This document shows, one piece after another, positions 6,169-47,157 of a stretch of 64,000 nt of DNA (the stretch's first letter is position 1; each line of letters begins with the position of its first letter). The position numbers and the translations under genes were made by a program. This stretch comes from a virus: IMG/VR virus record IMGVR_UViG_3300025869_000011, positions 1 to 64,000 of that record. One strand, 5' to 3'. The notes below the pieces were generated by a model. The model searched no databases. It saw only the letters and a list, made by a program, of their open reading frames with translations, and was not told the DNA's origin.

Positions 6169-7575
6169 ATGCTTTTAGACATTACACAAGAAGATCGCCA
6201 ACTATGGGTATCATATTTTAATCTTGACGGTAAAACAAGATTTAAGACTTATGATCTTAAACCAGAAGATATGTTTAATTGGGAAGTATGTGATGAATCG
6301 GATCCTAATGCTGACTCTAAAATAAAAAACTGGGATGGTCGCCCAGTCAAAAAGGCAAGATCTAGGTGGTTAAATAAGTATAGGATTATTGAATACATGG
6401 ATCAACTATCTTTTTCTGATAGGGAATTAATTTTTGGTTATCATTTTCCAAGAACTTATTTTGTAGATATTGAAGTTGAGGTAACTGATTCTTTCCCTGA
6501 ACCAAGTAAAGCACCAAACCCAGTTACTACAATTTGTATTGTTACTCCAGAAAAACAATGTATTGTTTTAGCAACTAAAGATTTAGATAATCAAACTCAA
6601 ACTAAAATACAAAAACAAATCGACGAACACTTTAAAGATATCGATGATGATTTTTCATTTACTTTTAAATGTTTTAAATCTGAATATGATATGATGTCAA
6701 CTTTTATGATGTCATTTGTTCAGAAATTCCCAATGATGACAGGTTGGAATTATATAAAATTTGATTGGCAGTATATTATTAATAGGTGTAAAAAGCTTGG
6801 TGTTGATATTGGTTCGGCTTCACCTATAGGTAGAAATTTTGGAAGAGATGAATTTCCTTGCCACGTAGGTGTAATGGATTATTTAGATATTTATGCAAAG
6901 TGGGATAGAACCGTTGATATTAAAGAAGACTTTAAATTAGATACTGTAGGAGAAGCCGTAGTAGGAATTAAGAAAGTTAAATATGAAGGTACTATCCAAG
7001 ATATGTATGAAAAGGATTATCCTAAATATGTTTTCTATAATGTAATTGATACAGCATTAGTTTATCTTATTCATCAAAAGATTAAGACAATGGATATTGC
7101 ATTAACTATTGCTCATATGACTCAAATTAGTATTTTTAAAGCAGCATCACCAGTCGCAATTACTGAAGCACTATTGGCAAGAGAATTTCTAACCAGAAAT
7201 TTAGTAATGGCAAAAGATCCTAAAGCACCACCATCTAAAAGAGAGCAGTTCGAAGGAGCCTTCGTAAAAGAGCCAATAACTGGTATGCATAACGCAGTAG
7301 CTGCATTTGATTTTGCTTCTCTATATCCTTCTATAATGAGACAGTTAAATGTTTCGCCAGAAAGCTTTAAGAAAAAAGTATCACCTGAAAAAAGAAGCGC
7401 TGAAAGAGGTGAGAATAATATTGTGTCGGTTACTGGTGCTGTGTATGATACTGAAAGATCTATACTAAAGGATGTTCTTACAAGGTTATATGATCAGCGA
7501 AAAGAATATAAGAAAGAATCTTTTAGACTGCAACAAAAAGCATACGATTTGGAACAAGAACTAAAAAAGTCTTAA
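6169..7575 (+). CDS. Family-B DNA polymerase, N-terminal half (gp43A-like)
   Basis: ExoI DIEV, ExoII GWNYIKFDW, ExoIII YNVID, motif A FDFASLYPSIM; ends in the fingers helix. Confidence 0.93.
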   Translation: MLLDITQEDRQLWVSYFNLDGKTRFKTYDLKPEDMFNWEVCDESDPNADSKIKNWDGRPVKKARSRWLNKYRIIEYMDQLSFSDRELIFGYHFPRTYFVDIEVEVTDSFPEPSKAPNPVTTICIVTPEKQCIVLATKDLDNQTQTKIQKQIDEHFKDIDDDFSFTFKCFKSEYDMMSTFMMSFVQKFPMMTGWNYIKFDWQYIINRCKKLGVDIGSASPIGRNFGRDEFPCHVGVMDYLDIYAKWDRTVDIKEDFKLDTVGEAVVGIKKVKYEGTIQDMYEKDYPKYVFYNVIDTALVYLIHQKIKTMDIALTIAHMTQISIFKAASPVAITEALLAREFLTRNLVMAKDPKAPPSKREQFEGAFVKEPITGMHNAVAAFDFASLYPSIMRQLNVSPESFKKKVSPEKRSAERGENNIVSVTGAVYDTERSILKDVLTRLYDQRKEYKKESFRLQQKAYDLEQELKKS

Positions 7576-10723: not shown

Positions 10724-11470
10724 ATGAAAAATTATACTTATATACTTGGCCCTTGTAGTATTGAAAATGAGGATAACTTTTTAGAAGTAGCTAAAACATT
10801 ATATGCTTGTATGGGAGATAAGAACTGGTACTTAAAAGGATCTTTTGATAAAGCAAATAGAACTTCCATACATTCTGATAGAGGCCCTGGGTTAGAGGAA
10901 GGAATGGAGATTATGAGAACGGTTAAACACTATTATCCTGATATTAAAATCATAACTGACATTCATGAACCTGACCAAGCATTACCTTTATCTGAAGTAG
11001 TTGATGTTATTCAAATACCGGCATTCTTATGTCGGCAAACTGATCTTTTAGTTGAATGTGCAAAAAACTTTAATGTCATTAACATTAAGAAAGGTCAATG
11101 GTTATCTGCTGATGCAATGAAACATGCAGTTACCAAAATAAAAGAAGTAGATCCAAAGTGTGAAGTATGGGTAACCGAGCGAGGATCTAATTTTGGATAT
11201 GATAGACTTATTGTAGATTTTAGAGGAGTTGATGTAATGAAAGAATTTGCAGATAAAGTTATTTTAGATTGTACCCACTCAACACAAATGGCAGGTGAAG
11301 GTATAACTGGCGGTAGTCGTAAATTAGCAAAACAATATGCTAAAGCAGCTAAGATTTTTGAATATGATGGTTCATTTATTGAAACTCACCCAGATCCAGA
11401 TAATGCTATTTCAGATTCCGAAAGTCAAGTAGAATTAGACTGGTTAGTTACTCAAATAAATAATATATGA
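10724..11470 (+). CDS. kdsA: KDO-8-phosphate synthase
   Basis: GPCSIE, SFDKANRTS, QIPAFLCRQTDLL, NIKKGQ, DCTHS, ETHPDP...SD. Confidence 0.93.
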   Translation: MKNYTYILGPCSIENEDNFLEVAKTLYACMGDKNWYLKGSFDKANRTSIHSDRGPGLEEGMEIMRTVKHYYPDIKIITDIHEPDQALPLSEVVDVIQIPAFLCRQTDLLVECAKNFNVINIKKGQWLSADAMKHAVTKIKEVDPKCEVWVTERGSNFGYDRLIVDFRGVDVMKEFADKVILDCTHSTQMAGEGITGGSRKLAKQYAKAAKIFEYDGSFIETHPDPDNAISDSESQVELDWLVTQINNI

Positions 11471-12528
11471 GTCTAGACTACAATAAATTACTTAATCGTA
11501 AACCTATAATAACCGATCTTAAATTAATTAAAGATTTTATTAAAGGCAAAAGAATACTTGTTACAGGTGGTGCAGGTTCAATAGGTAGTGAAATAGTAAG
11601 ACAGCTTGTTAAGTTTAATGCATCTACTGTAACTGTATTTGATAATGCAGAAGCATCTATGTTTCATTTAGAACAAGAGATAAGTAGATCAAATCCAAAT
11701 TCTCATATTAAATATGTAATAGGTGATGTTAGAGATAAGTATAGGTTAGAAGAAGTTTTTGATTCATTTAAACCTAATATAGTTTTTCATGCAGCTGCAT
11801 ATAAACATGTACCTATGATGGAGGCAAATCCTGTTGAGGCAATCAAAACAAATGTATTAGGTACAATGAACGTCTCAAATATTTCATATATGAATGAAGT
11901 AGATAAATTTATAATGGTATCTACTGACAAGGCAGTTAACCCAACAAATGTTATGGGTGCAACTAAAAGAATAGCAGAATTATATACTCAATTCTTAGAA
12001 ACAAAATCAGCAACTAACTTTATTGTTACAAGATTTGGTAATGTACTAGGATCTGAAGGTTCAGTAATTCCAACATTTGTAAAGCAAATTAAAAGAGGCG
12101 GTCCGGTAAGTGTTACACACACGGAAGTTATAAGATACTTTATGACTATACCTGAGGCATGCCAATTAGTATTACAAGCAAGTGTACTAGGAGATGGTGG
12201 TGAAGTGTTTTTATTTGATATGGGTGAACCTGTAAGCATTACTGATTTAGCAAAAAATTTAATTAAGCATTTTAATAGTAATGCTGAAATAGAGTATATA
12301 GGCTTAAGACCAGGTGAAAAATTATATGAAGAATTATTATGTAATGGTGAGAATATGATTCCTACTGAGGATCATAACATTATGAAATTAAACCACGAAG
12401 AATATGATTTTAAAACGTTAATACCTAAAATAGAAAAGTTATCTAAAATAAGATCAAATGATTTTTACAAGATACTTTTATTAATGAAAAGTATTGTTCC
12501 AGAATTTAAAAGAGAAAGTAATGATTAA
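11467..12528 (+). CDS. pglF: UDP-GlcNAc 4,6-dehydratase (PglF/CapD catalytic domain)
   Basis: TGGAGSIGSE, HAAAYKHVP, STDKAVNPTNVMGATK, RFGNVLGS, GLRPGEKLYEEL. Confidence 0.9.
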   Translation: MSLDYNKLLNRKPIITDLKLIKDFIKGKRILVTGGAGSIGSEIVRQLVKFNASTVTVFDNAEASMFHLEQEISRSNPNSHIKYVIGDVRDKYRLEEVFDSFKPNIVFHAAAYKHVPMMEANPVEAIKTNVLGTMNVSNISYMNEVDKFIMVSTDKAVNPTNVMGATKRIAELYTQFLETKSATNFIVTRFGNVLGSEGSVIPTFVKQIKRGGPVSVTHTEVIRYFMTIPEACQLVLQASVLGDGGEVFLFDMGEPVSITDLAKNLIKHFNSNAEIEYIGLRPGEKLYEELLCNGENMIPTEDHNIMKLNHEEYDFKTLIPKIEKLSKIRSNDFYKILLLMKSIVPEFKRESND

Positions 12529-13063
12529 TATTTACGGAAAAGGTGGTCACGCAAAAGTAGTTAATTCTGTTTTAGGTAGTAGTCAAGTAAATTTTTATAA
12601 TGATGAGGATTTTGATTTACAACAAGGCCCGTGGGTCATAGCAATAGGTAATAATAAATCCAGAAAAAGAATAGCTGAAGAAGTGCTAGGTGAAATAGAA
12701 TATGTAACAGTTATATCTGATTCTGCAATTATATGCAATTATGATATTGGTGAAGGTAGCCAAATATTACAAGGAGCAGTAATACAAATAAACGCTAAAA
12801 TAGGTAGGCATTGTATAGTTAATACAGCAGCATCTATTGACCATGATTGTATATTAGAAGATTTTACTTTTATTGGCCCTAATGCAACATTATGTGGTGG
12901 TGTAGAAATTGGCGAAGGTAGTTATATTGGAGCAGGGTCGGTAATCTTACCTTATATAAAAATTGGAAAAAATTGTATGATAGGTGCAGGGTCAGTAGTG
13001 ACTAAAAACATTCCTGATAATTCAACTGCATACGGAAATCCTGCTAGAAGAAAAATAATATGA
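12521..13063 (+). CDS. pglD: PglD/NeuD-like sugar acetyltransferase
   Basis: GKGGHAKVV, AIGNN..R, hexapeptide repeats, IDHDC, YGNPAR. Confidence 0.88.
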   Translation: MINIYGKGGHAKVVNSVLGSSQVNFYNDEDFDLQQGPWVIAIGNNKSRKRIAEEVLGEIEYVTVISDSAIICNYDIGEGSQILQGAVIQINAKIGRHCIVNTAASIDHDCILEDFTFIGPNATLCGGVEIGEGSYIGAGSVILPYIKIGKNCMIGAGSVVTKNIPDNSTAYGNPARRKII

Positions 13064-14175
13064 AAAAAATTTACTTATCACCGCCTCATATGTCAGGCAA
13101 AGAATTAGATTACATTAAAAAAGCTTTTGATGATAATTGGATTGCTCCGATTGGACCTCAGCTTAATATGTTTGAAGAAAAGGTTAAAGAATACACTGGA
13201 GCAAAACATGCAGTAGCAGTTTCATCAGGTACTGCTGGTATTCATTTAGCATTAAAGGCATTAAATGTAAGTGAGGGTGATTATGTTATCTGTTCTTCTC
13301 TTACTTTTATAGGAACAGTTAACCCTATTATTTATTGTGGAGCAGAGCCTATTTTTGTAGATTCAGAAGAAACTACTTGGAATTTAGATCCAGTTTTATT
13401 AGAAACTGCAATACTTAATTCAACGGCTTTAGGTAAAAAACCTAAGGCTATAATACCAGTTCATATTTTTGGGGTACCTTGTGATATGGATGCAATTAAA
13501 AAATTATCAGATGAATATGACATACCTATTATTGAAGACGCAGCAGAAAGTATTGGTTCTAAATTTAATAATAAACATACTGGAACCTTTGGCTCTATTG
13601 GCATTTATTCTTTTAACGGAAATAAACTCTTATCTACCTCTGGTGGTGGAGTAATCATAACAGATGATAAGAAGAAGGCTGAAAGAATGAAGTTCTTATC
13701 TACTCAAGCAAAAGATACTATGCCGTTTTATCACCACACAGAAATAGGTTATAATTATAGAATGAGTAACATTTTAGCCGCTATTGGGATTGGTCAAATG
13801 GAAGTTATCGAAGAAAGAATTAATAGAACTAGAGAAATTAATAAAGTTTATAGAAAAGAATTAAGTAAGTATTTTTATTCATTTCAGAACGAAAGAAACA
13901 CAGATAGATCAAACATGTGGTTAACTTGTGCTTTATTAAAAGGAGAAGACAGACCAGAAGATCTTATATCACATTTAGAAAAAGATAATATTGAAGCAAG
14001 AAGATTATGGAAGCCAATGCATGAACAGCCAGTTCTAAAAGGATATAGAAAATATATAAATGGAAATAGCTCTTTATTATTTTTACAAGGTATATGTTTA
14101 CCATCCGGTTCTAGTATGACTGACTCGGATTTAAAAAGAGTAATAAAGTCAGTAAAAACATTTTTTAATAAATGA
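13060..14175 (+). CDS. pglE: DegT/DnrJ family sugar aminotransferase (PglE/EpsN-like)
   Basis: LSPPHM, SSGTAGIHLAL, EDAAES, SFNGNK, GYNYRMSN. Confidence 0.92.
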   Translation: MKKIYLSPPHMSGKELDYIKKAFDDNWIAPIGPQLNMFEEKVKEYTGAKHAVAVSSGTAGIHLALKALNVSEGDYVICSSLTFIGTVNPIIYCGAEPIFVDSEETTWNLDPVLLETAILNSTALGKKPKAIIPVHIFGVPCDMDAIKKLSDEYDIPIIEDAAESIGSKFNNKHTGTFGSIGIYSFNGNKLLSTSGGGVIITDDKKKAERMKFLSTQAKDTMPFYHHTEIGYNYRMSNILAAIGIGQMEVIEERINRTREINKVYRKELSKYFYSFQNERNTDRSNMWLTCALLKGEDRPEDLISHLEKDNIEARRLWKPMHEQPVLKGYRKYINGNSSLLFLQGICLPSGSSMTDSDLKRVIKSVKTFFNK

Positions 14176-15068
14176 TAAATTTTGAAGAGTATAGATTATT
14201 AGAATCTTATATAGGTTCTAAAAATTTTGAAATTTTGTTGGAGAAAAATCTTTCTAATAAAATTGATAACAAAATAAAATTCGGTATAGTAATGCCTACT
14301 CATAAAATATCTGATGGTGGTGCTCAGACAACTAGACAAAATCACATGACTACACCTAGTATATTAAAAGATTCTTTAACATCAATAAAAAATCAAAAGT
14401 ATGATAATTATACGGTTTACTTAGTAGGTGATAAATATGATGGTGATGAAGAGATAAAGGAAGTAATGAATAGTATTATCCCAAAGGGTAAATTAAAATA
14501 TCATAACCTGTCATCACCTGGTGAAAGAGATAAAGGTTTTACAAAGCAACAATTTAGATATACTGCAGGTTGCGGTGCAATGAATAAAGGTTTGCAAATG
14601 GCTAAGTCAGATGGGTGTGATTATATTGTTAGAATTGACCATGATGATAAGTGGACTCCTAATCACTTAGAGCTTTTAGCAAAAGCATACACACAATATC
14701 CTGAATTGGCATATGTATTCACAAGAAGCCGTAAAAAGATAGACGCAACAAATAGCTCTAAGAAATATATGTACCAACCTAGGGACGAAAGGCATACTAA
14801 TCTAATAGAACCAAATAATCTTGGTTATACTCATGGTGATGTTAGTCACTCTGCAGTTTCATGGAGACCTTCTATGTGTGGTGATTTAAGATATCGTGAT
14901 GCCGACGCGCAATGTAATACCGAACCTAAAATATCTAAAGAAAAAACTAACCCAGCTGATGTTGACATGTTTAACAGAATGATGAAGGTTATAAAAGATA
15001 AAGGTCATAAGTATATGTACGTACCAAAACTAACAAGTTTCTATAGAAACAGAAAAGGTAAATTCTAA
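14172..15068 (+). CDS. Glycosyltransferase family 2
   Basis: GIVMPT, SIKNQKY, N.GL, RIDHDDKW.PNHL (DxDD). Confidence 0.85.
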   Translation: MINFEEYRLLESYIGSKNFEILLEKNLSNKIDNKIKFGIVMPTHKISDGGAQTTRQNHMTTPSILKDSLTSIKNQKYDNYTVYLVGDKYDGDEEIKEVMNSIIPKGKLKYHNLSSPGERDKGFTKQQFRYTAGCGAMNKGLQMAKSDGCDYIVRIDHDDKWTPNHLELLAKAYTQYPELAYVFTRSRKKIDATNSSKKYMYQPRDERHTNLIEPNNLGYTHGDVSHSAVSWRPSMCGDLRYRDADAQCNTEPKISKEKTNPADVDMFNRMMKVIKDKGHKYMYVPKLTSFYRNRKGKF

Positions 15069-15279: not shown

Positions 15280-15297
15280 TCATACATAATCTTTTTT

Positions 15298-15332
15298 AAA
15301 AAAGACTATCTTTAATTAGATGGTCTTTTTTG
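15298..15332 (+). terminator. Intrinsic terminator
   Basis: aaaaaagactatct-ttaatt-agatggtctttttt. Confidence 0.8.
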
Positions 15333-15357
15333 TTTGTATAATGCCCGGTTATACTTG

Positions 15358-15390
15358 AAACTTTTTTAAAAACTTCTATATAATAATAAA
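15358..15390 (+). promoter_or_regulatory. Middle-type promoter of the modification operon
   Basis: AAAC-N17-TATAATAATAAA. Confidence 0.65.
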
Positions 15391-15403
15391 TCAGTTAAAT
15401 TAT

Positions 15404-15955
15404 ATGGAACGTTGCTTAATATTAGATTTTGATGATACTTTAGTTTCAACTATAGATACTCATGCAAATTCATGGAAACTTGCTATAGAAAGAGTATTGA
15501 ATAGGGATATACCTATTGAAACAATAATGTCTGATATTAATTACGGAATGGATGTTCTTTTAAAGAAATATCAATTAACTGAAGCTGAGTCCCAATTAGC
15601 ACAAGATTACAAAAGAGAAATATTTTCAAAGAATCTTCATAAGACTAAAATAAATCAATTACTTTTGTGGATAATTAAAAATTCTCAATTTGAAAAAGTT
15701 ATTATAGCATCAAATTCATCTAGAGAAAATGTAGATAGAATTATGGCTTATCATAATATAAGTAATGAATTATTTGATATGATTGTAACGAGGGATGATG
15801 TTTTAAATAAAAAGCCACACTCAGATATGGCAGATTTAATTTTTAAAACATTTCCTAAATATAATCCAGCTGATTTTTTAATGGTTGGTGATTCAGAAGT
15901 AGATTCAACATTCGCACTTAAAAACAAAATGAAATGCATACTGGTAAAGTTTTAG
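15404..15955 (+). CDS. HAD-superfamily phosphatase
   Basis: DFDDTL, ASNS, KKPH, VGDSEVD. Confidence 0.9.
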   Translation: MERCLILDFDDTLVSTIDTHANSWKLAIERVLNRDIPIETIMSDINYGMDVLLKKYQLTEAESQLAQDYKREIFSKNLHKTKINQLLLWIIKNSQFEKVIIASNSSRENVDRIMAYHNISNELFDMIVTRDDVLNKKPHSDMADLIFKTFPKYNPADFLMVGDSEVDSTFALKNKMKCILVKF

Positions 15956-16680
15956 TAGGAAATAGTGGAGATAGGGTATATCTTCAAGATAACAAAGTTA
16001 TTAAAGAAGCTGGGGTTTATCCTATAAAGTTTAAGCAGCAAATGGATTGGTTAAAAAATTGTACCCATCCGAATTTTATAAAGATTAATCCTATATCAGA
16101 TACTTCATTTGAAATGAAAAAATACCCAACATGGTATGATAAAATCTGTGAACAGCCTTTAATTAAATCAATTGACCAATTAGATGATCTTATTCATATT
16201 GTAAATGATTTTGATGGTTACGGTACTGATGTAGATACAAGATCTTATTTAGATAAATTAGAAGGTAGAACAGGTTATACTTATGAAGGTGAATTAGATG
16301 CATCGTCAGGCTGGGGGTTTGTTCATGGTGATTTAACAGTAAGTAATATCTTATATGATAAGGATTTTATTTTTATTGATCCACGAGGTACTGAAGAGCA
16401 GAATTATTATGACTATGGAAAACTGATGCAATCTTTTGTAATGAAATATGAGGCCCATATATACAATGAAAGGAATTCTAAATATCTTAAGTTCTGTAGG
16501 GAAGCAGAAAACATAATGTATGAATGGTATGACGAATACCAATTAAAATTCTTTTTAGCAGTTCACTTATTAGGAGCTGTTCCATTTTTTGAATTAAATG
16601 AAAGATATGAATTGGCAGGTATGTTCCTTAAGAAAGGGCATGAATTATTCGATGAATTAGAAATTAAATATAGCAAATGA
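15934..16680 (+). CDS. APH/choline-kinase-like phosphotransferase
   Basis: HGDLTVSNIL...FIDPRG...YDYGKL. Confidence 0.85.
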   Translation: MHTGKVLVGNSGDRVYLQDNKVIKEAGVYPIKFKQQMDWLKNCTHPNFIKINPISDTSFEMKKYPTWYDKICEQPLIKSIDQLDDLIHIVNDFDGYGTDVDTRSYLDKLEGRTGYTYEGELDASSGWGFVHGDLTVSNILYDKDFIFIDPRGTEEQNYYDYGKLMQSFVMKYEAHIYNERNSKYLKFCREAENIMYEWYDEYQLKFFLAVHLLGAVPFFELNERYELAGMFLKKGHELFDELEIKYSK

Positions 16681-17384
16681 GTAGAGTAAGAAAAGCAATT
16701 ATCTTAGCAGCCGGGAGGTCTACTAGGTATGGATCAAATAAACTTATAGATCCAATTTTAGGAAAATCAACAATTCAGTACTGTATTGAATTTTGTATTG
16801 AGAATGGAATAGAGGATGCATATGTTACTATAAGTAAATCTGACTTCTTTTTTAAAAATAGAAATACAAAATTATCTCATCCTATTATTGAAAGTTTATC
16901 AAAGTATAAAGAAAAGATAAACATTTGTTATGAATTTCAGAAGGATGATGAATATGGACCAGGCGCTGCAATTAAGGCATGGGAAGGTAAATTTTATGAA
17001 CCTTTCTTATGTCTCTTTGGTGACAATTATTATCAAGGTAATATTGGTTTAGAATACCATGATCCTAATAACACTGTTGTTACTTATAAGGATTATGAAA
17101 CTAGAGCAAGAAATTTACAACTTGCTACTATCCTAGAAGATGTGGTTATTGAAAAACCGCATGGTGTAGTAAGCGGTAGATATTTTTGCGGATATATGAT
17201 ATTTGGTAAAGAGGCATTTGATAACTTAAGTAGTATTAAATTATCAAACAGAAATGAATATGAAATTACTCATCTTATAAACTCGATGGATAATTTAAAA
17301 TTTGAAGAATTAAATATATGTTGGTATGATTTAACATACGAACAAGATAAACAAGTAATAGAAGATATTATTCAAAATTGTTAA
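16677..17384 (+). CDS. Sugar-1-phosphate nucleotidyltransferase (RmlA-like)
   Basis: AIILAAGRSTRY, FGDN, EKP, S.RNEYEIT. Confidence 0.9.
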   Translation: MSRVRKAIILAAGRSTRYGSNKLIDPILGKSTIQYCIEFCIENGIEDAYVTISKSDFFFKNRNTKLSHPIIESLSKYKEKINICYEFQKDDEYGPGAAIKAWEGKFYEPFLCLFGDNYYQGNIGLEYHDPNNTVVTYKDYETRARNLQLATILEDVVIEKPHGVVSGRYFCGYMIFGKEAFDNLSSIKLSNRNEYEITHLINSMDNLKFEELNICWYDLTYEQDKQVIEDIIQNC

Positions 17385-17385
17385 T

Positions 17386-18651
17386 ATGAAAGAGAATGTA
17401 AAAAAGATTGGTTTTTTTAAATTAGGTAAAGCCATAAAGTTTAATGAAAACAGTTGGAGCGCAATCGGTGGTGATTGTGAACCTAAGCAATTAATTTGTT
17501 CAATTGCAAACAGAAATCCTAATATCGAATATTGGCTATTAAGCCCAAATGATTTAGGTAAGTTTAGAGCAAAACAAAAACCTAAAGTAAATTCTTTATT
17601 CGGCCCACCGCAAACAGATGAACCTATAGTTCCTAATAATATTAAAGAATTTCATTCTACTATGAAAGAGAGAAAGTCTACTGATGAAACTGTTGAAATT
17701 ATTCAAGGTTTAGATTTAGATTTTATTTTCTTTTATACTGGTCCAACAAGTACTGTTAATATTCCAGAGTATATCAACAAGAAGGATGGTACTGGTCAAG
17801 TTAAATCGTTGGATTTCTTTAAGTATTATGCAGCTCCAATTATTAAAGCGATGAATGAATTGGAAAAGAAAGTTCCTATTGTAGGTTTACTTGTTGATAA
17901 CCGATATGTTCTTGCGTGTAAGGATTGGAGTATAAATAATAGACCAACCTATTACTTAGCACAAAATACATTTACTAAAGAAGAACAATATTTCTGTAAT
18001 CCACCACTGAGAGATGTTAAAACAATTACATCTACATATGAATATTCAGGTATTGAAACAGTATTTCTTTTAGATAAGAAAAGATATGATACTGATGAAT
18101 TATTTAAAATGAAAAAGACCAATTCATTTATGATGCTACAGAATCAAGGTAAAGGTTCAGGTGGAATGGATCGTTGGGATCCAGTAAAAGAATACATTGT
18201 TGATCAAGAAATAGAAACTGATATCTATGGTAAATGGGATGATGAGATTAAAGAAAAGTATCCTAAATGGTTTAAAGGAGAAACTAGAATCGAAACAATG
18301 ACCGATGAATTACTCGGTACTAAATATACATTCTGTGTACCTATTAAAGAAGGTATGGTAACCTCTAAGTATGCTGAAATGCTACACTATGGTATTATAC
18401 CTTTCTTACACCCATCTTACGATACTGACTTTAATGTATTCCCTGAAGGTCATTTTATTAGATGTAAATCAGCAGAAGATTTAAAAAAGAAAATTGAATT
18501 CTTAAATGCAAACCCGGAGCATTATAAGAAATTATTTTATAACCTACAAGAAAAGTATCTTAAGGATTCTTATTATACTGGAGAGCATGTAGATAACAAG
18601 ATCTGGGAATCTTATGAAAGAGTAACTAAAACTGAAACCGTAAATGTATAA
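17386..18651 (+). CDS. GT-B glycosyltransferase, distantly T4 beta-glucosyltransferase-like
   Basis: N-terminal KLG...GGD.E; DIYGKW; C-terminal VTSKYAEML..GIIPFL...YD. Confidence 0.6.
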   Translation: MKENVKKIGFFKLGKAIKFNENSWSAIGGDCEPKQLICSIANRNPNIEYWLLSPNDLGKFRAKQKPKVNSLFGPPQTDEPIVPNNIKEFHSTMKERKSTDETVEIIQGLDLDFIFFYTGPTSTVNIPEYINKKDGTGQVKSLDFFKYYAAPIIKAMNELEKKVPIVGLLVDNRYVLACKDWSINNRPTYYLAQNTFTKEEQYFCNPPLRDVKTITSTYEYSGIETVFLLDKKRYDTDELFKMKKTNSFMMLQNQGKGSGGMDRWDPVKEYIVDQEIETDIYGKWDDEIKEKYPKWFKGETRIETMTDELLGTKYTFCVPIKEGMVTSKYAEMLHYGIIPFLHPSYDTDFNVFPEGHFIRCKSAEDLKKKIEFLNANPEHYKKLFYNLQEKYLKDSYYTGEHVDNKIWESYERVTKTETVNV

Positions 18652-19666
18652 TTCTGAAACAAAAATCCTAGTCACCGGTGGTGCTGGGTTCGTTGGTACA
18701 AATTTTATCAATGATTTATTAAATAGAGGACATAATCCTAAATGTATTGCAGTGATCGATAATATGGAACACGGTACTTATATACCTAAAGTCCATGATC
18801 AAATTGAAAATTTTCATAAAGTAGATATTAGAAATCAATATGTAGAAAACATTATTCAGGATTTTGCACCTGATTATGTTTATCACTTCGCTGGCTTGGT
18901 TTCTATTTATGACTGTCATGAAGATCCATACGAAGCTGTAGATAATAATATCTTAGGAAGTATTAATGTAATGAATGGTTGTGTAAAGGCAGATGTAAAA
19001 AGAATTATCTTTAGTGAAACTTCTGCTGTATATGAAAATTGTGAAATGCCTAAAGAAGGGTTTAACGAGAATCAATCTGATCCTACTACAATTTATTCTA
19101 CAACTAAAGCATGCCTTGCCTTATTAGCAGAATCATACCAGAGAACTAAAGGTTTAAATTATACTGCATTGAGATACTTTAATGTTGCTGGGCCACTTCA
19201 AGACTATAATAGAACCATACCTCCTGTATTCGCTGGATTTATTTTAAGAATTAAAGGTAATCATAATCCTATAGTGTTTGGTGATTATATGAAGGCAAGA
19301 GATTATATTGATGTATCTGATGTTAATGCATTCCACATTCTTTGTATGGAAAATGAAGATACCGCAAACCAAACCTTTAATTTAGGAACCGGTAAAATGA
19401 CAAATCTAATGGATCTTAAAAATATGATTGGTGATATTATGGGAGTTGGTGAACCTGTGTTTGATCATTACGATCCGATTGCAGGTGAGGCTTTAAATAT
19501 CAGAGGGGATATCTCCAAAGCTAAATCGATGGGATGGGAACCTAAAAAAGATATAAGAGATACTATAAAAGAAACTATTGTTTATCTTGAAGAAGAAATT
19601 AATCAAGGTACAATTGACCCTTTAACTTTTATGGAAGATTTAGAAATTGAAAAAGTAAAAATATAA
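18644..19666 (+). CDS. NAD-dependent nucleotide-sugar epimerase/dehydratase
   Basis: TGGAGFVG, YSTTK, LRYFNVAG, RDYIDVSD. Confidence 0.92.
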   Translation: MYNSETKILVTGGAGFVGTNFINDLLNRGHNPKCIAVIDNMEHGTYIPKVHDQIENFHKVDIRNQYVENIIQDFAPDYVYHFAGLVSIYDCHEDPYEAVDNNILGSINVMNGCVKADVKRIIFSETSAVYENCEMPKEGFNENQSDPTTIYSTTKACLALLAESYQRTKGLNYTALRYFNVAGPLQDYNRTIPPVFAGFILRIKGNHNPIVFGDYMKARDYIDVSDVNAFHILCMENEDTANQTFNLGTGKMTNLMDLKNMIGDIMGVGEPVFDHYDPIAGEALNIRGDISKAKSMGWEPKKDIRDTIKETIVYLEEEINQGTIDPLTFMEDLEIEKVKI

Positions 19667-19667
19667 T

Positions 19668-20930
19668 ATGGAAAAAGAATTAAAATGGGGTACTATAATT
19701 CCACTGATTGGTGGTAGTGCTATAGGATGTAAAAAATCTGCAGGTAACGAACCTGCATTTCATTTAAGTTATGATGCGTTTGCTGCTAATGAAAGTCATA
19801 TTGAAAAATATTGGCCTGATGTACCTATGTATAGGTTAGATCATGAAGATTTAGAAATTCCTAAACAAACCTTTAACGAAGTAGATTATGTAAATTCAGT
19901 TTGTCCTTGTGCAGGGTTATCACAATTAAATTCTGCAAGAGGAACGTCTGCTTCTCGTGGATCTGGTGCTACTCAAAATCAATGGATGTATAATTCATCA
20001 GAATATATTTTAGAAAACGTAAAACCTAAAGTACTTTGGGGTGAGAATGCACCTGGTCTTTTTACTAAGATGGGAGAAGGTGTTGTTGACAGGTTAAGAG
20101 AAATAGGCGAAAAATATGGCTATAGTTTTTCTTTAATTAAAACAAACACCGAGCTTCATGGAATTCCACAAAGAAGAATGAGAACTTTTTATTTCTTTTG
20201 GAATACACCAACTGTACCTATGTTAAGTTGGAAATTCAGAGAAAAGAAATTACTAATTGATTATCTTAATGAAATTCCTAAGGATGCTACACACCAAGAT
20301 ATGTTTATGGTTGAAGGTAAAGTCACAGATCATTTTACACCTTATGAATATGTTTTAGAAAAGGAAGGTTTAACTCATGCTGAATTTGCTGCAAAATTTA
20401 AAAAAGGAACTATTGCACAGTACTTAGAAAAAAATGAACTTATTGATGACTGTATTAAATGGTTAGAAAAACATTATCCTAAAAGAGGGTTTTCAAATAA
20501 AAAATCTACAAAGACTTTTATTGATATGTTAGAGCACCAACAATATAAAACAAGTCAAGGATTAGGTTATTGGGATGCATCCCCGCATTTCTTTCACGAT
20601 TCTTTTTCTGCTCTTATTGGTAGAAATATGTTTAATGGTGTACACCCAGTAGAAAACAGATATCTTAATGTTAGAGAAATGCTTCACTTAATGGGACTTC
20701 CTTTAGACTTCGGTATTGAAAGCTCAAGACAAGTAAATCATATTGCTCAAAATGTACCTGTTACAACTGCTATGGATATGGCTGATGAGGTAAAGAAATT
20801 TTGTAAAGGCGAGGCTAAGATGACTAATTTTACATTTCTGAAACAAGATAACACAAGTCATAAAATTATTGATTCTGTTGAAATTGGATCAGAACCTAAA
20901 AAGAAATATAAAGTAAAAAGTATAATTTAA
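19668..20930 (+). CDS. DNA cytosine-C5 methyltransferase-like protein with atypical cofactor motifs
   Basis: PC catalytic motif (CPCAGLS), ENAP, PQRRMR, RYLNVRE..LMGLP; motif I is IPLIGG instead of FxGxG. Confidence 0.82.
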   Translation: MEKELKWGTIIPLIGGSAIGCKKSAGNEPAFHLSYDAFAANESHIEKYWPDVPMYRLDHEDLEIPKQTFNEVDYVNSVCPCAGLSQLNSARGTSASRGSGATQNQWMYNSSEYILENVKPKVLWGENAPGLFTKMGEGVVDRLREIGEKYGYSFSLIKTNTELHGIPQRRMRTFYFFWNTPTVPMLSWKFREKKLLIDYLNEIPKDATHQDMFMVEGKVTDHFTPYEYVLEKEGLTHAEFAAKFKKGTIAQYLEKNELIDDCIKWLEKHYPKRGFSNKKSTKTFIDMLEHQQYKTSQGLGYWDASPHFFHDSFSALIGRNMFNGVHPVENRYLNVREMLHLMGLPLDFGIESSRQVNHIAQNVPVTTAMDMADEVKKFCKGEAKMTNFTFLKQDNTSHKIIDSVEIGSEPKKKYKVKSII

Positions 20931-20932
20931 TT

Positions 20933-21937
20933 ATGAAAGATAACGCATTAGCAATAGGAATATCTAGTTTAGAGTTTACCAATATCTTATGTAGTTATTA
21001 TCCTAAAGGGATCAAAGAAAATTTTGATATTTACTTATTTGTTGATAATAATAAAATAGACATAGATAAACTTCAGTGCATTTTTAAAGAGCATGATTTA
21101 GATATTTTTATTAATGCTAAAATTATTATCTTAAAGGATGTATATGATCATTATATAGAAAAGCATCAATATAAAGGTAATGCAAAAAAGTTTCTATTAA
21201 ATCATGGTTGTTTATTTAAAATTCTAATGCCTATTTATCTAAGAGAAATGTTTGGTGTTAAAAGAACATATGTTTCCGATGATGATGTATTTATCCTAAA
21301 TGATCTCAGTTATATGTGGACTAAATATAAAGAGTTCGGTATTAAGAAGGAAAACTTATTTTACATTAGAAATAAAAATAAGTATGATGTAATGAATGCC
21401 TTCAATGAAATATTTGAATCTGATTTTACTTTGGATCAAATGAATGGTCTAGCAATAAATGCAGGTAATATTATTTATGACGAAGACCCTAAGTTAGAAT
21501 ATTACTTTGAGCGGTTTATGAAGCACCCATTTATTCATCATATGTTTTTTGATTTTACAGGTTATACGAGCTGGACAGTAGAACAGAGGTTTCATCATTT
21601 TAATATTCATAGATATTTAGCAGAAGGAAAGGAAGTTAAATTTTTAGAAAGTAAAGACTTAAGACTAATGCAAAATCTTGATAAAGATATGAAGGCTGGT
21701 GAGCCACCTGAAAAATATTTAAAAGAAGTCGTACCATCCTTAATCCATTATGCAATAGGCACAAAAAAACCTTTATGGTTAAATGATTTTTTACCAGGTC
21801 TTAAATGGAGATATGGTTTTGACTATAAGGCCAAATATGAATTAAAGGATATTCTATATAATAAAGATTGGCGACCACCATCCTTTAAAAGTGTACAGAA
21901 AAAACAAACAGCATTAAAAATTAAGTCTGTATTTTAA
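20933..21937 (+). CDS. Putative GT-A (GT8-like) glycosyltransferase
   Basis: YVSDDDVFILNDL (DxD), INAG, EQ, IHYA...KP. Confidence 0.6.
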   Translation: MKDNALAIGISSLEFTNILCSYYPKGIKENFDIYLFVDNNKIDIDKLQCIFKEHDLDIFINAKIIILKDVYDHYIEKHQYKGNAKKFLLNHGCLFKILMPIYLREMFGVKRTYVSDDDVFILNDLSYMWTKYKEFGIKKENLFYIRNKNKYDVMNAFNEIFESDFTLDQMNGLAINAGNIIYDEDPKLEYYFERFMKHPFIHHMFFDFTGYTSWTVEQRFHHFNIHRYLAEGKEVKFLESKDLRLMQNLDKDMKAGEPPEKYLKEVVPSLIHYAIGTKKPLWLNDFLPGLKWRYGFDYKAKYELKDILYNKDWRPPSFKSVQKKQTALKIKSVF

Positions 21938-21988: not shown

Positions 21989-22738
21989 ATGGAAACAAAA
22001 ATTAACAAAATTGACGGTTATGAATTAAGTTCATTCGTTCGCAAACTACTTCCAATTGACAAATTCATCTTTATGAAAATCGCAAAAGAAGGTACTGTAT
22101 CTTCTGTATATTTTCCTGAGAGAGATGCCGTAAAATTGGTTAACACTCCAACTGCTGATATCTTTGATGCTGATATCTCTGAACCTGTAAAGGTAAGCTT
22201 TTATAATGGTACTAAAGTTATTGATGCATTAAGTCATTTTAATGGTGATGTCCAAGGTCGTATTAAGTATACTGAATATGATGGAGAATTAATGGCAAGT
22301 GATTTTATTTTAGAAAATGAAGATCTTCAAATTAATTTGGCATGTACAGATCCTTCATTATCTTTTATGGAAATGAGCAAGGAAGAAACTGATAGAGCAT
22401 TCGGTACAGATTCTAAAATGTTTAGTTTTGATTTACTTACTACTCATGTAGATAAAATGAAATCATTATTTAACTTAGATAAAGATGAAGATATCTTTAC
22501 TCTTTATATAGGAGAAAAAGGTATTAATATTAAAGGTACTTCTTATGATGCTACTTTATGCCACTCTTATGATTCAGATGTAGAAAAAGGTGCAAAAGTT
22601 GTAATTTATAAAAAGTATATTAATCTTTTAGATAAGGAAAATTACAAAGTAAGCGTTTGTGAAAATAAGGTTGTATTTAAATCTTTAGATACTAATACAC
22701 ATCTTACTGTTGCTGTTGCTATTACTGACGAGGATTAA
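21989..22738 (+). CDS. Probable sliding clamp (gp45/PCNA-like)
   Basis: ~250 aa, acidic, two-domain alpha/beta periodicity; adjacent to the polymerase C-half; clamp loader present. Confidence 0.6.
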   Translation: METKINKIDGYELSSFVRKLLPIDKFIFMKIAKEGTVSSVYFPERDAVKLVNTPTADIFDADISEPVKVSFYNGTKVIDALSHFNGDVQGRIKYTEYDGELMASDFILENEDLQINLACTDPSLSFMEMSKEETDRAFGTDSKMFSFDLLTTHVDKMKSLFNLDKDEDIFTLYIGEKGINIKGTSYDATLCHSYDSDVEKGAKVVIYKKYINLLDKENYKVSVCENKVVFKSLDTNTHLTVAVAITDED

Positions 22739-22753
22739 TACTGCATCTAATTA

Positions 22754-22785
22754 TTTAAAGGGCATCATAATCGGTGCCCTTTAAA
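22754..22785 (+). terminator. Hairpin terminator overlapping the next middle promoter
   Basis: tttaaagggca...tgccctttaaa. Confidence 0.7.
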
Positions 22786-22816: not shown

Positions 22817-23935
22817 ATGACAGAGGAATTACAAAAAATTAACGAAGAGGCATCTAAGTTTTATAATTATGAACAGGCAGTTAAGTTAATGCTTAACTCT
22901 ATTTACGGCGCATTTGGTAATCCTTATTTTTATTTCTTTAATGTTGATATTGCTGAAACTATTACACTCCAAGGTAAAGATGCAATTTTATATACCGAAC
23001 AATTAGTTAATAAGTATTTTAAAGAGTTTTGGCATAAAGATCTACCAGCTCACGCTGCTATGGGTATTACTGTAACAGGTAAAATTGAAAAACCAGTAGG
23101 TATTTATATTGATACAGATTCAGTGTATGTTAAATTTGATGAAGTAATTCAAAAGTCGGAAGGCTGGAACGGTGATGAAAAAGAATTTATACTTAAGCTT
23201 TATAAGGTTAGGTTAAATGGTTATATAGAAAAGATTCTACAAAAATATGCAGACGATAATAATGCAGAAAACTTTTTATCTTTTGAATTAGAAAGTATTG
23301 CTAAAAATGCAATATGGTTGGCAAAGAAAAAGTATATGCAGAATATAGTTTGGAAGGATCCGGATATTCACTATGATGATCTTTCTAAAATTAGTTCAAA
23401 AGGATTTGAAATCATTCAGTCATCTACTCCTATTTTTGCAAGAGAAAAATTAAAAGAACTATTAACTTACATATTTTCTGTAAGTGAATTAGATATGGGA
23501 GCATTTGCATCTTTGCTTAAGGATGTTAAAAGACAATTTAGATTAGCAAATGTTGATCAAATCAGTTTTTCAAGAAAGGTTAATAATTATCAAAAGTATA
23601 TTGTAAATGATTATGAACAATTTGAGATCGCATCAAAATGCCCAATCGGCGTAAGATCTGCAGGTTATCATAATTACTTATTAAACAATTCAGGCAAAAA
23701 AGGTAAATACCAACCATTAGGAAACGGGGAAAAATGTAAAATGTATTTTTCTGAAGATAATTCCTGTGATGTATTTGCATATGCACCTGGAGATTATCCT
23801 TATGAATTCGCGCCTAAGATTGATTACGATCGACAATTCGAAAAAACAATATTAGATCCTATAAACAGAGTTGTTACTGCTATGGGATTTAAGGGATTCA
23901 ATAGAAACTTGATTTATACTACAAGTTTATTTTAA
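22817..23935 (+). CDS. Family-B DNA polymerase, C-terminal half (gp43B-like)
   Basis: Motif B KLMLNSIYGAFGN, motif C YIDTDSVY, KKKY, KGFE. Confidence 0.93.
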   Translation: MTEELQKINEEASKFYNYEQAVKLMLNSIYGAFGNPYFYFFNVDIAETITLQGKDAILYTEQLVNKYFKEFWHKDLPAHAAMGITVTGKIEKPVGIYIDTDSVYVKFDEVIQKSEGWNGDEKEFILKLYKVRLNGYIEKILQKYADDNNAENFLSFELESIAKNAIWLAKKKYMQNIVWKDPDIHYDDLSKISSKGFEIIQSSTPIFAREKLKELLTYIFSVSELDMGAFASLLKDVKRQFRLANVDQISFSRKVNNYQKYIVNDYEQFEIASKCPIGVRSAGYHNYLLNNSGKKGKYQPLGNGEKCKMYFSEDNSCDVFAYAPGDYPYEFAPKIDYDRQFEKTILDPINRVVTAMGFKGFNRNLIYTTSLF

Positions 23936-29169: not shown

Positions 29170-29667
29170 ATGTGGGGAAAAAAGAAAAAACCTAAATTAG
29201 ATGAAAACGGAAAACCTATTCCACCTAAATTAGCAGACAAAGATAAAATTTTTAATAATTCATACGGTGATCAGGATATTACTGAAAACCGAGTTAACTT
29301 TACTGTTGCTGCAACTTATGGTGATAGTATGGATCCTGATGATAGGATGCACTATGAATTACTAATTAAGAAGATTGATAAAATTATAAAGGGTAGTGAA
29401 TATGAGCATTTAAATGAAGCTACGCCAGAAGGAGTAATTAAGAAATTAAATAAAGTACAAATCAATAGAGTATATTCTCATATCATAGAAAAGATTGGGG
29501 ATGGGTATACAAGAGTTGATTTGTTTAGTGTTATATCAGATTACTTTGATGTATTCCCTAATAAATTTTATAATTCTCTTTCTAATAAATTTAAAGATGA
29601 ACTTATTAAAGAATTGGACGATAAGTATAATATCTTAGAAAAAAGAAAAATCAGAAAATTATTTTAA
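29170..29667 (+). CDS. Hypothetical helical protein ending KIRKLF
   Basis: ORF within the replication operon. Confidence 0.7.
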   Translation: MWGKKKKPKLDENGKPIPPKLADKDKIFNNSYGDQDITENRVNFTVAATYGDSMDPDDRMHYELLIKKIDKIIKGSEYEHLNEATPEGVIKKLNKVQINRVYSHIIEKIGDGYTRVDLFSVISDYFDVFPNKFYNSLSNKFKDELIKELDDKYNILEKRKIRKLF

Positions 29668-35864: not shown

Positions 35865-36344
35865 ATGAGCATTAAAAAGGTAAAACCTACTTCTAAGTCA
35901 GGATTTAAACAAGGTTATTATAATCCTGTTAATCCACAAAAGTATATAGGAGAACATCCTATCATATACAGAAGTAGCTGGGAAAGAAAGTTTTGCCATT
36001 GGTGTGATCATAATGATGAAGTATTAAAATGGGCATCTGAACCATTCTCAGTAAAATACTTTAATATGTTAGATAAAAAGTTTCATAATTATTACCCAGA
36101 CTTTTATATGAAGATGAATAAAGGCGAAGGTATAATTGAAGAATTTGTAGTAGAGATAAAACCTAAGGCACAATTACAAAAACCAAAGGCCCCAAAAAGA
36201 AAAACACCAAAGGCACTAAAGAATTTTAAACATGGATATGAAACTTATGTTAGGAACCTTTGTAAAACTGAAGCATTAAATAAAATGGCTAAATTAAGAA
36301 ATTTTAAAGTTATGCTATTAACCGAAGACTCAAAATTGTTTTAA
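35865..36344 (+). CDS. gp4-like head completion nuclease
   Basis: YRSSWERKF..WCD, WASE, YYPDF, EIKP. Confidence 0.88.
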   Translation: MSIKKVKPTSKSGFKQGYYNPVNPQKYIGEHPIIYRSSWERKFCHWCDHNDEVLKWASEPFSVKYFNMLDKKFHNYYPDFYMKMNKGEGIIEEFVVEIKPKAQLQKPKAPKRKTPKALKNFKHGYETYVRNLCKTEALNKMAKLRNFKVMLLTEDSKLF

Positions 36345-45933: not shown

Positions 45934-47157
45934 ATGAAAAAAACAGGCAGACATACATTTGTTATAGATGGTAATTATTTTCTGTTTAGAACATTATATG
46001 TAATTCCTAGCAGATCAAAAAAGGCAGGTCTATTAGGAACAGAAGAAGACGTACAAGCTTTTGTCAAAAAATTGGCAACTGACTTTGCATATCAAATCAG
46101 ATTATTCGAAGGTCTTATCGACAAGGTTGTTTGGACGGTAGATTCAAGATCATGGAGAAAAGACTTTTACCCAGATGCAGAATATAAAGGTAATCGTAAA
46201 CAGAATGATGCCCTCAACTGGGAAAACTTTTCAAAGGCAACAGCTGACTTTATTTCTATCTTATCTAAGCAAGGTGTTATTATTTCTAAAATAGACGGTG
46301 CTGAAGGTGATGATTTAATGTATGCATGGAATACTGAATGTCTTGCAAATGACAAATCAGTTATTATGTTTACTGGTGACAGGGACTTAGTTCAATTAGT
46401 AGATAAGAGTACAAATAACAATACACATACTATTCTATTCTCACCTGCTCATAAAAAATTATATACTTATCAAGGTTTTTCTGAATGGATGGATTCACAA
46501 ACAGAAGAAGAACAATCTGATGATATATTTGATGTACTAAAAACTTCTGTATCACCAGAGAATCAGGCTAAAAAATTACTTAAAGCTTTGGTTGCAAAGA
46601 AAAAGGTTTCTATTATAGAAGTTGACCCTGAAGACTTCCGTTTTCGTAAAGTACTTACTGGAGATTCAGGAGACAATGTACCACCTGCATATTACTATCA
46701 AAAAGGCAACAGACGATATGGCATCAGCGAGAAAAAGGCAACTGCTATTATTGCAGAGTTCAAAGAAAAGCATGGCCACTTATCTCATATGTATCTTTAC
46801 AACGATGAGTATATTACTGATCTTGCAAATATGACCGTAAGAGTTATGAATGCAAAACATATGAGCAGAGAACAGATTATTTCTAATCTAAAATCCAATG
46901 TTAATCTTATGGTACTTGCTGCTGAATCTATACCAGAAGGTATCCTAGACGAAATGTTTAAATCTGTCGAATCTAAAATGAATGTAAAAGGTTTACAATT
47001 AAAGACAATTTCTACAATGAAATCTATTTTGGAAAATACTGAATATGCAAAAGAAACTGATAGTTCATTTAAATCTTCTTTCTTTAAAGATGATGATACT
47101 GATTCAAGTGACATGTCTTTTATAAAAGGTAGCAAATCACAGGATAAGATTTTTTAA
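45934..47157 (+). CDS. rnh: T4 RNase H-like 5'-3' exonuclease
   Basis: IDGNY, SWRK..YP..YKGNR, EGDD, TGDRD..QL, GDSGDNVP. Confidence 0.9.
   Translation: MKKTGRHTFVIDGNYFLFRTLYVIPSRSKKAGLLGTEEDVQAFVKKLATDFAYQIRLFEGLIDKVVWTVDSRSWRKDFYPDAEYKGNRKQNDALNWENFSKATADFISILSKQGVIISKIDGAEGDDLMYAWNTECLANDKSVIMFTGDRDLVQLVDKSTNNNTHTILFSPAHKKLYTYQGFSEWMDSQTEEEQSDDIFDVLKTSVSPENQAKKLLKALVAKKKVSIIEVDPEDFRFRKVLTGDSGDNVPPAYYYQKGNRRYGISEKKATAIIAEFKEKHGHLSHMYLYNDEYITDLANMTVRVMNAKHMSREQIISNLKSNVNLMVLAAESIPEGILDEMFKSVESKMNVKGLQLKTISTMKSILENTEYAKETDSSFKSSFFKDDDTDSSDMSFIKGSKSQDKIF

Follow-up and report, generated by a model that had tools for sequence, protein, structure and literature searches.

A putative T4-type cytosine glycosylation module with its own sugar-nucleotide supply in an uncultured large T4-like phage

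The phage systems closest to the locus described here are the glucosyl-5-hydroxymethylcytosine system of T4, the Afh route of RB69, DLP3 and HY126 (PMC13326640), the clusters combining a C5-cytosine methyltransferase (C5-MTase) with a TET/5mYOX enzyme and glycosyltransferases (PMC8256090; bioRxiv 10.1101/2023.12.21.572611), and the CmoA-CmoX-CmoY system of Synechococcus phage S-B43, in which the first hypermodification step is performed by CmoX, a natural carboxymethyltransferase whose motif-X Asn is replaced by Arg (PMC12783734). Metagenomic surveys have additionally listed glycosyltransferase clusters in whose neighbourhood genes for a clamp, a methyltransferase, an APH kinase and an epimerase occur (bioRxiv 10.1101/2023.12.21.572611). 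With these systems we compare a seven-gene operon (15,404–21,937, plus strand) of the IMG/VR virus record IMGVR_UViG_3300025869_000011; the window, i.e., the whole stretch of DNA analysed, is the first 64 kb of this 77.9-kb viral contig, whose CheckV completeness is 28%. We consider, with a probability of roughly 70%, that the operon supplies and transfers the sugar in a pre-replicative system of cytosine hypermodification of the T4 type, whose final product is most likely mono- or di-glycosylated 5-hydroxymethylcytosine (5hmC). The first-pass annotation of the window had proposed a new hypermodification pathway, but this novelty could not be maintained, because the logic matches that of T4 and of RB69/DLP3/HY126 and glycosyltransferase clusters of this kind are already present in the surveys.

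The contig and its relatives are incomplete genomes or fragments, and the absences of genes mentioned below are bounded by this fact. Gene neighbourhoods were drawn from IMG/VR loci and three GenBank phages, and the structures are AlphaFold models for which alignments of IMG/VR homologues were used as input.

A further gene of the proposed system is located 6 kb past the end of the window: contig positions 70,096–71,007 encode a homologue of thymidylate synthase (TS) resembling gp42-type dCMP hydroxymethylases. The first-pass annotation was correct in stating that neither a TET nor a TS-like gene is within the window, and the search beyond the window that it recommended has yielded, within the contig, this TS homologue and no TET gene (no PF12851 match in the contig or in four relatives, all of which are incomplete genomes). 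The best PDB matches of the TS homologue are MilA (CMP hydroxymethylase) and T4 dCMP hydroxymethylase (E 1e-22), well ahead of true thymidylate synthases, and its identity to T4 gp42 is 31% (E 1e-27). It has Asp at the position of Escherichia coli ThyA N177, which indicates dCMP rather than dUMP (MRSNDLILGTPTD aligned with T4 MRSNDVVFGFRND), and also Asp at the ThyA L143 position together with the catalytic Cys146 (motif DFVCT). Asp169 (ThyA numbering) is kept in this protein and in all 25 readable co-located homologues, and the gp42-type signature is likewise carried by 25 of the 25 readable TS homologues found near relatives of the C5-MTase-like gene of the operon. Replacement of this residue (D169N) marks 5-hydroxy-dCMP synthases in every one tested (PMC13326640), and according to the signature residues of that study the product is predicted from the sequence to be 5-hydroxymethyl-dCMP, neither dTMP nor 5-hydroxy-dCMP. 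Genes resembling those for guanylate kinase (GMK) and thymidylate kinase (TMK) are placed directly upstream of the TS homologue, and larger relatives (up to 182 kb) also encode a genuine ThyA, as T4 does.

A candidate for the base-proximal DNA glycosyltransferase is the GT-B-fold protein encoded at 17,386..18,651 (plus strand; model pLDDT 82, weak Pfam match). Structure prediction against T4 beta-glucosyltransferase (BGT) had been suggested as a check, and BGT is the best solved match both by Foldseek (top match, E 1.8e-10) and by VIA-align, where it fills the top four rows and reaches Z 20.8 with a root-mean-square deviation of 4.2 Å over 317 of 344 residues. The corresponding Z scores are 16.6 for T4 alpha-glucosyltransferase and 16.0 for the HY126 DNA glycosyltransferase (9iqz). 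At the sequence level, Pfam assigns Glyco_trans_1_2 at E 0.003 and gives no BGT match, and phmmer found nothing useful among the PDB sequences. On the basis of gene context, we propose 5hmC in duplex DNA as the acceptor. In Enterococcus phage 9183, a homologue of this GT-B is clustered with TMK, a TS homologue, dUTPase, an SIS isomerase and a sugar pyrophosphorylase fusion acting on nucleoside diphosphate sugars (NDP-sugars); in Pseudoalteromonas phage XG4, the cluster consists of a TS homologue, a small HAD protein, a nucleotidyltransferase-APH fusion, the GT-B, a second GT-B and the C5-MTase-like gene. Homologues are found also in clusters of TS-homologue and NDP-sugar genes in five IMG/VR loci (L036, L041, L042, L082 and L087).

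The seven genes are plus-strand open reading frames (ORFs) whose neighbours overlap by 4–22 nt or are separated by 1–2 nt, so that the overlapping or abutting operon claimed in the first-pass annotation is borne out, and its gene assignments hold roughly as given. Ahead of the operon there is a candidate sigma-70-like promoter (15,355..15,384, plus strand; TTGAAA-18-TATAAT, 11/12), and this simple pattern is present in a single copy across the window. A terminator-like hairpin with a 15-bp stem and a T-run (15,297..15,332, plus strand) closes the sugar cluster located upstream, and another (22,754..22,785, plus strand) ends the transcription unit on the 3' side of a gene for a 249-aa protein. 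Since the next hairpin appears only after this gene, the transcription unit probably includes it as an eighth gene. Conservation of the gene neighbourhood, another of the suggested checks, was found for six of the seven genes: the block of HAD phosphatase, kinase, nucleotidyltransferase, GT-B, epimerase and C5-MTase-like enzyme is kept with 68–98% identity in more than 40 contigs of the clade to which the window belongs. The GT-A gene that follows is an accessory one, being present in some contigs and missing from one subclade. Comparison of the operon with GenBank phages at the DNA level gave no match.

The operon lies between both halves of a split family-B DNA polymerase and beside replication genes. 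The halves are two genes 15 kb apart (N-half, 6,169–7,575; C-half, 22,817..23,935, plus strand, assigned by Pfam and further family matches), and between them are the ribonucleotide reductase and both sugar clusters. The polymerase and the reductase form, with a UvsX-like recombinase, a DnaB-like helicase and topoisomerase II, a T4-like replication set in an AT-rich window (about 30% G+C). Among GenBank sequences, the polymerase is closest to those of uncultured huge phages, followed by those of T4-like pelagiphages and cyanophages, and the source is an uncultured large T4-like phage.

Four enzymes of the operon appear to supply the sugar nucleotide. The HAD_2-type phosphatase or phosphomutase (15,404..15,955, plus strand; HAD_2 E 2e-21) has a DxDxT motif; KdsC was considered as its identity and rejected, since the KdsC models gave no match and proteins of the beta-phosphoglucomutase or phosphoglycolate-phosphatase type matched best. 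The next gene (15,934..16,680, plus strand) probably encodes a sugar (anomeric) kinase of the APH fold: it has no Pfam match, its Atlas features are APH-like (0.97), and it shares the HGDLxxxN/IDPRG catalytic loop with the APH half of phage NTP-transferase/kinase fusions; one AfhE-like fusion, in IMG/VR locus L041, has a kinase half 32% identical to it. The sugar-1-phosphate nucleotidyltransferase (16,677..17,384, plus strand), assigned by Pfam, NCBIfam and PHROG scores, is closest to archaeal enzymes of this function. The fourth is a GalE-type SDR NDP-sugar 4-epimerase (18,644..19,666, plus strand), whose best PDB match is the UDP-glucose 4-epimerase 4zrm (E 2e-40). The combination that had been pointed out from the window alone, namely an NDP-sugar supply by phosphatase or mutase, kinase, nucleotidyltransferase and 4-epimerase joined to two transferases, thus still looks like a DNA-cytosine glycosylation module; what could not be retained is a hydroxyl handle made by the C5-MTase-like enzyme.

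The last of the seven genes (20,933..21,937, plus strand) encodes a GT8-like, retaining-type glycosyltransferase of the GT-A fold with DDD at residues 116–118 and a disordered tail ending in KSVF (model pLDDT 75.5, core above 85). Best matches of the model are XXYLT1, glycogenin and LgtC (E 1e-8 to 1e-6), and D116–D118 are invariant among the homologues. The sequence itself has no Pfam, NCBIfam, PHROG or useful PDB match and does not by itself place the protein in GT8, and tblastn against GenBank phages found no match.

The C-terminal tail of this GT-A deserves attention. In T4 and RB69, it is the C-terminal tail of the polymerase that binds the gp45 clamp, and an interaction with gp45 has also been reported for T4 alpha-glucosyltransferase. 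In the present clade, a C-terminal [LIVM]F is found in 22 of 22 distinct GT-A homologues and in all 38 distinct polymerase C-halves; topoisomerase II ends in KSLF, and nine distant GT-B homologues have the [LIVM]F tail as well. Among the C5-MTase-like proteins, 13 of 67 end in [LIVM]F and 57 of 67 in a hydrophobic pair. The tail was found in none of about 300 sugar-nucleotide enzymes or upstream GT2s; epimerases, kinases, nucleotidyltransferases, HAD proteins and PglF/PglD/LegC/KdsA proteins all lack it, and among other ORFs only 7% have it. This pattern suggests that the GT-A, and perhaps the C5-MTase-like protein, is recruited to DNA, and the tail fits a DNA- or replisome-directed transferase. 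Several small proteins share with the GT-A, topoisomerase II and the polymerase C-half a tail of the form [S/K/T][LIVM]F, which may serve in binding to the clamp or the replisome; the genes concerned lie at 19,668–20,930, 20,933–21,937, 22,817–23,935, 29,170–29,667, 35,865–36,344 and 45,934–47,157 in the window and 64,832–66,709 in the contig.

Of the genes that the first-pass annotation had placed directly downstream of the operon, the polymerase C-half (22,817–23,935) was recovered, and the clamp was not confirmed. The conserved 249-aa protein of the same transcription unit (21,989..22,738, plus strand) is a sliding clamp candidate by position: it has no Pfam or PDB match, PHROGs were uninformative, hhalign against T4 gp45 gives a probability of 0.8%, and the Atlas lead is weak (one cluster at rank 24, with gp45-slide_C in 10% of its members). 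Complex prediction of three copies of this protein with GT-A residues 290–334 gave a score of 0.29, the mark being 0.32, and we draw no conclusion from it. The protein is highly conserved in the clade, and its only match among GenBank phages (48%) is at 252,725–253,468 of LR756500.1, a 462-kb uncultured huge phage that also has the closest polymerase C-half (59%) and is without a homologue of the C5-MTase-like enzyme or the GT-B.

The C5-MTase-like enzyme itself (19,668..20,930, plus strand; PF00145, 69 bits with a cut-off of 22) is a member of a large family, with 2078 proteins at E ≤ 1e-5 and at least 560 IMG/VR loci. The family profile matches M.HaeIII at E 4e-9 and M.HhaI at E 4e-7; the NCBIfam dcm score of the protein is 46.7, below the cut-off of 100.65. 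Invariant motifs of the family are IIPLIGG, VCPCAGLS, GENAPGL, HGIPQxRxRTFYFFW and NHIAQNVP. Motifs IV (PC), VI (ENA) and VIII (QxRxR) are intact, VCPCAGLS, GENAPG and PQRRMR being invariant in 21 diverse members, and the Cys, Glu and Arg that activate cytosine are intact. The motifs lining the site for S-adenosylmethionine (SAM) are changed: motif I reads IPLIGG instead of FxGxG, with Leu for its first glycine, and motif X reads AQNVP instead of GN(A/S)V, with Gln at the position of the motif-X Asn when aligned to HaeIII by HMMER. The acid of motif II may be represented by a conserved N41-E42, although this assignment was made by eye and is uncertain. We also examined whether the enzyme is a CmoX; the family matches the CmoX structure 8YF3 weakly and over a local stretch only (E 3e-4), the motif-X residue (HhaI N304 position) is Gln and not Arg, motif IV is VCPC and not SPPC, and no TIGR00740 match for CmoA was found in four records, all fragments, and on these grounds this identity was rejected.

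In relatives of the C5-MTase-like protein with 39–63% identity, about two thirds of the loci have an adjacent GT-B homologue, a TS homologue within 10 kb, or both, and we have found no paper describing this partner of TS/GT-B clusters. Forms of 600–700 aa (P0037–P0087) come from eukaryote-like metagenome and transcriptome sources, are 54–59% identical to the phage protein and carry C-terminal C2H2 or CXXC zinc fingers. These fingers suggest that at least some members of the family are plain DNA methylases, and the long forms point to gene exchange of phages with marine eukaryotes or giant viruses. In more distant clusters (L041 1,682–4,136; L064–L070; L083), the C5-MTase-like gene is accompanied by FkbM-type methyltransferases, GT25 and DXD-type glycosyltransferases, with large unannotated ORFs of 465–601 aa directly upstream of it, and such clusters probably make different glycans.

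As a rough division of the possible functions, an ordinary SAM-dependent 5-methylcytosine methylase acting on cytosines that escape replacement has the largest share, though short of even odds; a non-methyl reaction on cytosine or 5hmC is a clearly smaller one, and the rest falls to an accessory or base-flipping role, or to something else. It is rather unlikely that the enzyme is a new DNA-level cytosine-C5 enzyme that is not a methylase, using its Cys, Glu and Arg on 5hmC, or on cytosine with a non-SAM cofactor. One possibility for such a reaction would be the coupling of a group to an exocyclic-methylene intermediate formed from 5hmC, leading to an undescribed cytosine hypermodification, and the enzyme would then act jointly with the BGT-like transferase, perhaps at the replisome.

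The scheme that we propose can be outlined as follows. Judging from its signature residues, the TS homologue would convert dCMP to 5-hydroxymethyl-dCMP; the GMK- and TMK-like kinases would feed this product toward the dNTP pool, and the phage polymerase would build 5hmC into DNA. By family membership, the HAD protein, the APH-fold kinase and the nucleotidyltransferase would lead from a sugar phosphate through a sugar-1-phosphate to an NDP-sugar, of which the GalE-type epimerase would yield the C4 epimer. Fold and gene context suggest that the BGT-like GT-B adds the first sugar to the hydroxymethyl group in duplex DNA, and that a second one is attached by the GT8-like GT-A where a phage has this gene. 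The C5-MTase-like enzyme is a conserved partner of the GT-B and is probably not the maker of the handle. The likely benefit is protection against restriction enzymes and CRISPR nucleases.

Several points weigh against this scheme. The sequence similarity of the GT-B to BGT is marginal (hhalign E 6e-4, probability 28%), and BshA/GT4 enzymes are also close to its fold (Z 17–18.5); the TS homologue is 48 kb away from the operon; and any relationship of the phosphatase, kinase and nucleotidyltransferase to AfhF and AfhE is distant at best. The contig and its relatives, which are fragments of up to 65% completeness, yielded neither a dCTPase nor a dUTPase, and full replacement of cytosine is therefore unproven; the dUTPase, MazG and MazG-like families gave no match in the contig or its relatives, and as all of these are fragments this is not evidence of absence. 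Finally, genes for 3-deoxy-D-manno-octulosonate (KDO) and bacillosamine-type sugars in these phages could serve non-DNA glycans. This last point concerns the separately terminated cluster upstream (10,724..15,068, plus strand), which encodes KdsA, a PseB/PglF-like dehydratase, a NeuD/PglD acetyltransferase, a LegC-like aminotransferase and a GT2. In relatives, the gene adjoining KdsB is one for an arabinose-5-phosphate isomerase of the KpsF/GutQ type (L094; relative G001, 67,659–71,057), so that with KdsA here the clade has most of the CMP-KDO route.

From these neighbours one could argue that the glycan of the operon is destined for the surface of the virion or the host, as with the auxiliary genes for lipopolysaccharide (LPS), capsules and sugars that marine and giant viruses carry, and that the C5-MTase-like gene is a nearby anti-restriction methylase. 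The KdsA, PglF/PglD/LegC-like and GT2 genes just upstream, the KdsD-like and KdsB genes of the relatives, the GT8 and GT4-like folds typical of LPS and glycoconjugate enzymes, and the plain methylases suggested by the zinc fingers of the long eukaryote-like forms all agree with it. We nevertheless regard it as improbable, because no structure matches the GT-B better than T4 BGT, and because GT-B homologues and the C5-MTase-like gene recur in clusters of TS-homologue, deoxynucleoside monophosphate (dNMP) kinase and dUTPase-family genes of unrelated phages. Moreover, the polymerase-type tail is present on the GT-A and absent from the upstream GT2 and from all sugar-nucleotide enzymes, and the operon is parted from the upstream cluster by its own terminator and promoter. 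The PglF/PglD/LegC genes of that cluster vary among relatives, and none of its proteins has a polymerase-like tail.

The handle-making role that the first-pass annotation gave to the MTase-fold enzyme amounts to a different scheme, in which the C5 handle is made after replication in the manner of CmoX or of the MTase-TET pairs, the glycosyltransferases decorate it and the TS homologue is unrelated. The invariance of Cys, ENx and QxRxR in a family whose cofactor-site motifs I and X are remodelled is what this scheme would expect, CmoX provides a natural precedent for non-methyl transfer by a C5-MTase homologue whose motif-X residue is changed (PMC12783734), and glycosyltransferases are recurring neighbours of the gene. 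Its motif-X Gln is, however, not the Arg that defines CmoX, motif IV differs as mentioned above, and neither CmoA nor TET was found in the four or five records searched; transfer of a methyl or other alkyl group would provide no hydroxyl for a glycosyltransferase. As the handle would already be supplied by the gp42-type TS homologue and dNMP kinases encoded on the contig, and as all 25 readable TS homologues near members of the family are gp42-type, we have abandoned this role of the enzyme and consider the scheme distinctly improbable. Least probable of all, and hardly to be expected, is an RB69/DLP3/HY126-type system with Afh-like arabinose on 5-hydroxycytosine instead of 5hmC. The same logic of phosphatase, APH-fold kinase, nucleotidyltransferase and GT-B makes UDP-arabinose in those phages, an arabinose-5-phosphate isomerase of the KpsF/GutQ type occurs in clade relatives, and the HY126 enzyme (9iqz) is among the structural matches of the GT-B (Z 16); but Asp169 is retained here and in all 25 related loci with no D169N, and the 4-epimerase has no counterpart in the Afh pathway. 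The fused AfhE and small AfhF HAD typical of that route are also lacking at this locus, where kinase and nucleotidyltransferase are separate genes with remote similarity to AfhE (pairwise E 0.008 for the nucleotidyltransferase; E 3e-5 for the kinase, in the catalytic loop only) and the HAD protein (15,404–15,955) belongs to a different subfamily from AfhF, without pairwise similarity. True AfhE/AfhF-like genes are present in distant loci.

Downstream of the TS homologue there are a GT17-like glycosyltransferase and an ATP-grasp ligase of the YheC/D and sugar-transfer-associated types (contig 71,011–73,109; L002 7,011–9,109). Relatives have no gene between the TS homologue and the ATP-grasp gene, indicating that the GT17-like gene was inserted in the genome studied here. 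Distant C5-MTase-like clusters (L087, L088) also contain ATP-grasp genes, and this recurrence may reflect an amino-acid or amide decoration.

The same operon is present in dozens of IMG/VR contigs, and belongs to abundant uncultured large T4-like phages of marine and freshwater environments, whose DNA is probably sugar-coated. If this is true, the coat should affect cutting by restriction and CRISPR nucleases, entry into sequencing libraries and counts in viromes. The operon also offers a compact set for testing DNA glycosyltransferases, with a BGT-like GT-B, a GT8-like GT-A and its own NDP-sugar supply. The most useful lead is the C5-MTase-like family; if cytosine is fully replaced, a C5 methylase would have no obvious substrate.

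Comparison with the described systems can now be made in full. With the CmoA-CmoX-CmoY system of S-B43 (PMC12783734; PDB 8YF3), the locus shares a C5-MTase homologue of phage origin in which the motif-X residue is altered, and the ATP-grasp gene beside the TS homologue resembles the ATP-dependent ligase gene of the wider S-B43 system; it differs in the Gln of motif X, in VCPC instead of SPPC in motif IV and in that CmoA was not found. As in the phage clusters of C5-MTase, TET/5mYOX and glycosyltransferases (PMC8256090; bioRxiv 10.1101/2023.12.21.572611), a gene of the C5-MTase family adjoins those for GT-A and GT-B, whereas no TET/JBP-family gene was found in the contig or four relatives, and 5hmC is predicted to arise before replication from the TS homologue, which leaves the C5-MTase-like enzyme without an obvious handle-making role. 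With the Afh systems of RB69, DLP3 and HY126 (PMC13326640), the common elements are a TS homologue with a nucleotide kinase, a HAD phosphatase, an APH-fold kinase, a nucleotidyltransferase (MurU-like in Afh), one or more GT-B DNA transferases and a possible mono- or oligosaccharide product; the present phage differs from them in the kept D169 of the hydroxymethylase type, the unfused kinase and nucleotidyltransferase and the other HAD subfamily, and in its additional 4-epimerase, GT-A and C5-MTase-like genes. The T4 glucosyl-5hmC system consists of the gp42 dCMP hydroxymethylase, the gp1 kinase, the gp56 dCTPase and the alpha- and beta-glucosyltransferases; with it the locus shares a gp42-type TS homologue, dNMP-kinase-like genes and a GT-B for which BGT is the best solved match, and in both phages modification genes stand beside those for the polymerase and accessory replication proteins (b-gt-42-43-62-44-45 in T4). 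Unlike T4, which has the gp56 dCTPase and uses UDP-glucose of the host, this phage has no dCTPase found so far and makes its own NDP-sugar; its second transferase is a GT8-like GT-A in place of a GT-B, a C5-MTase-like enzyme is part of its module and its TS homologue is 48 kb away. Most likely, therefore, the system follows the T4 logic with a phage-encoded NDP-sugar route, which is analogous to, and not orthologous with, the Afh route of RB69, DLP3 and HY126.

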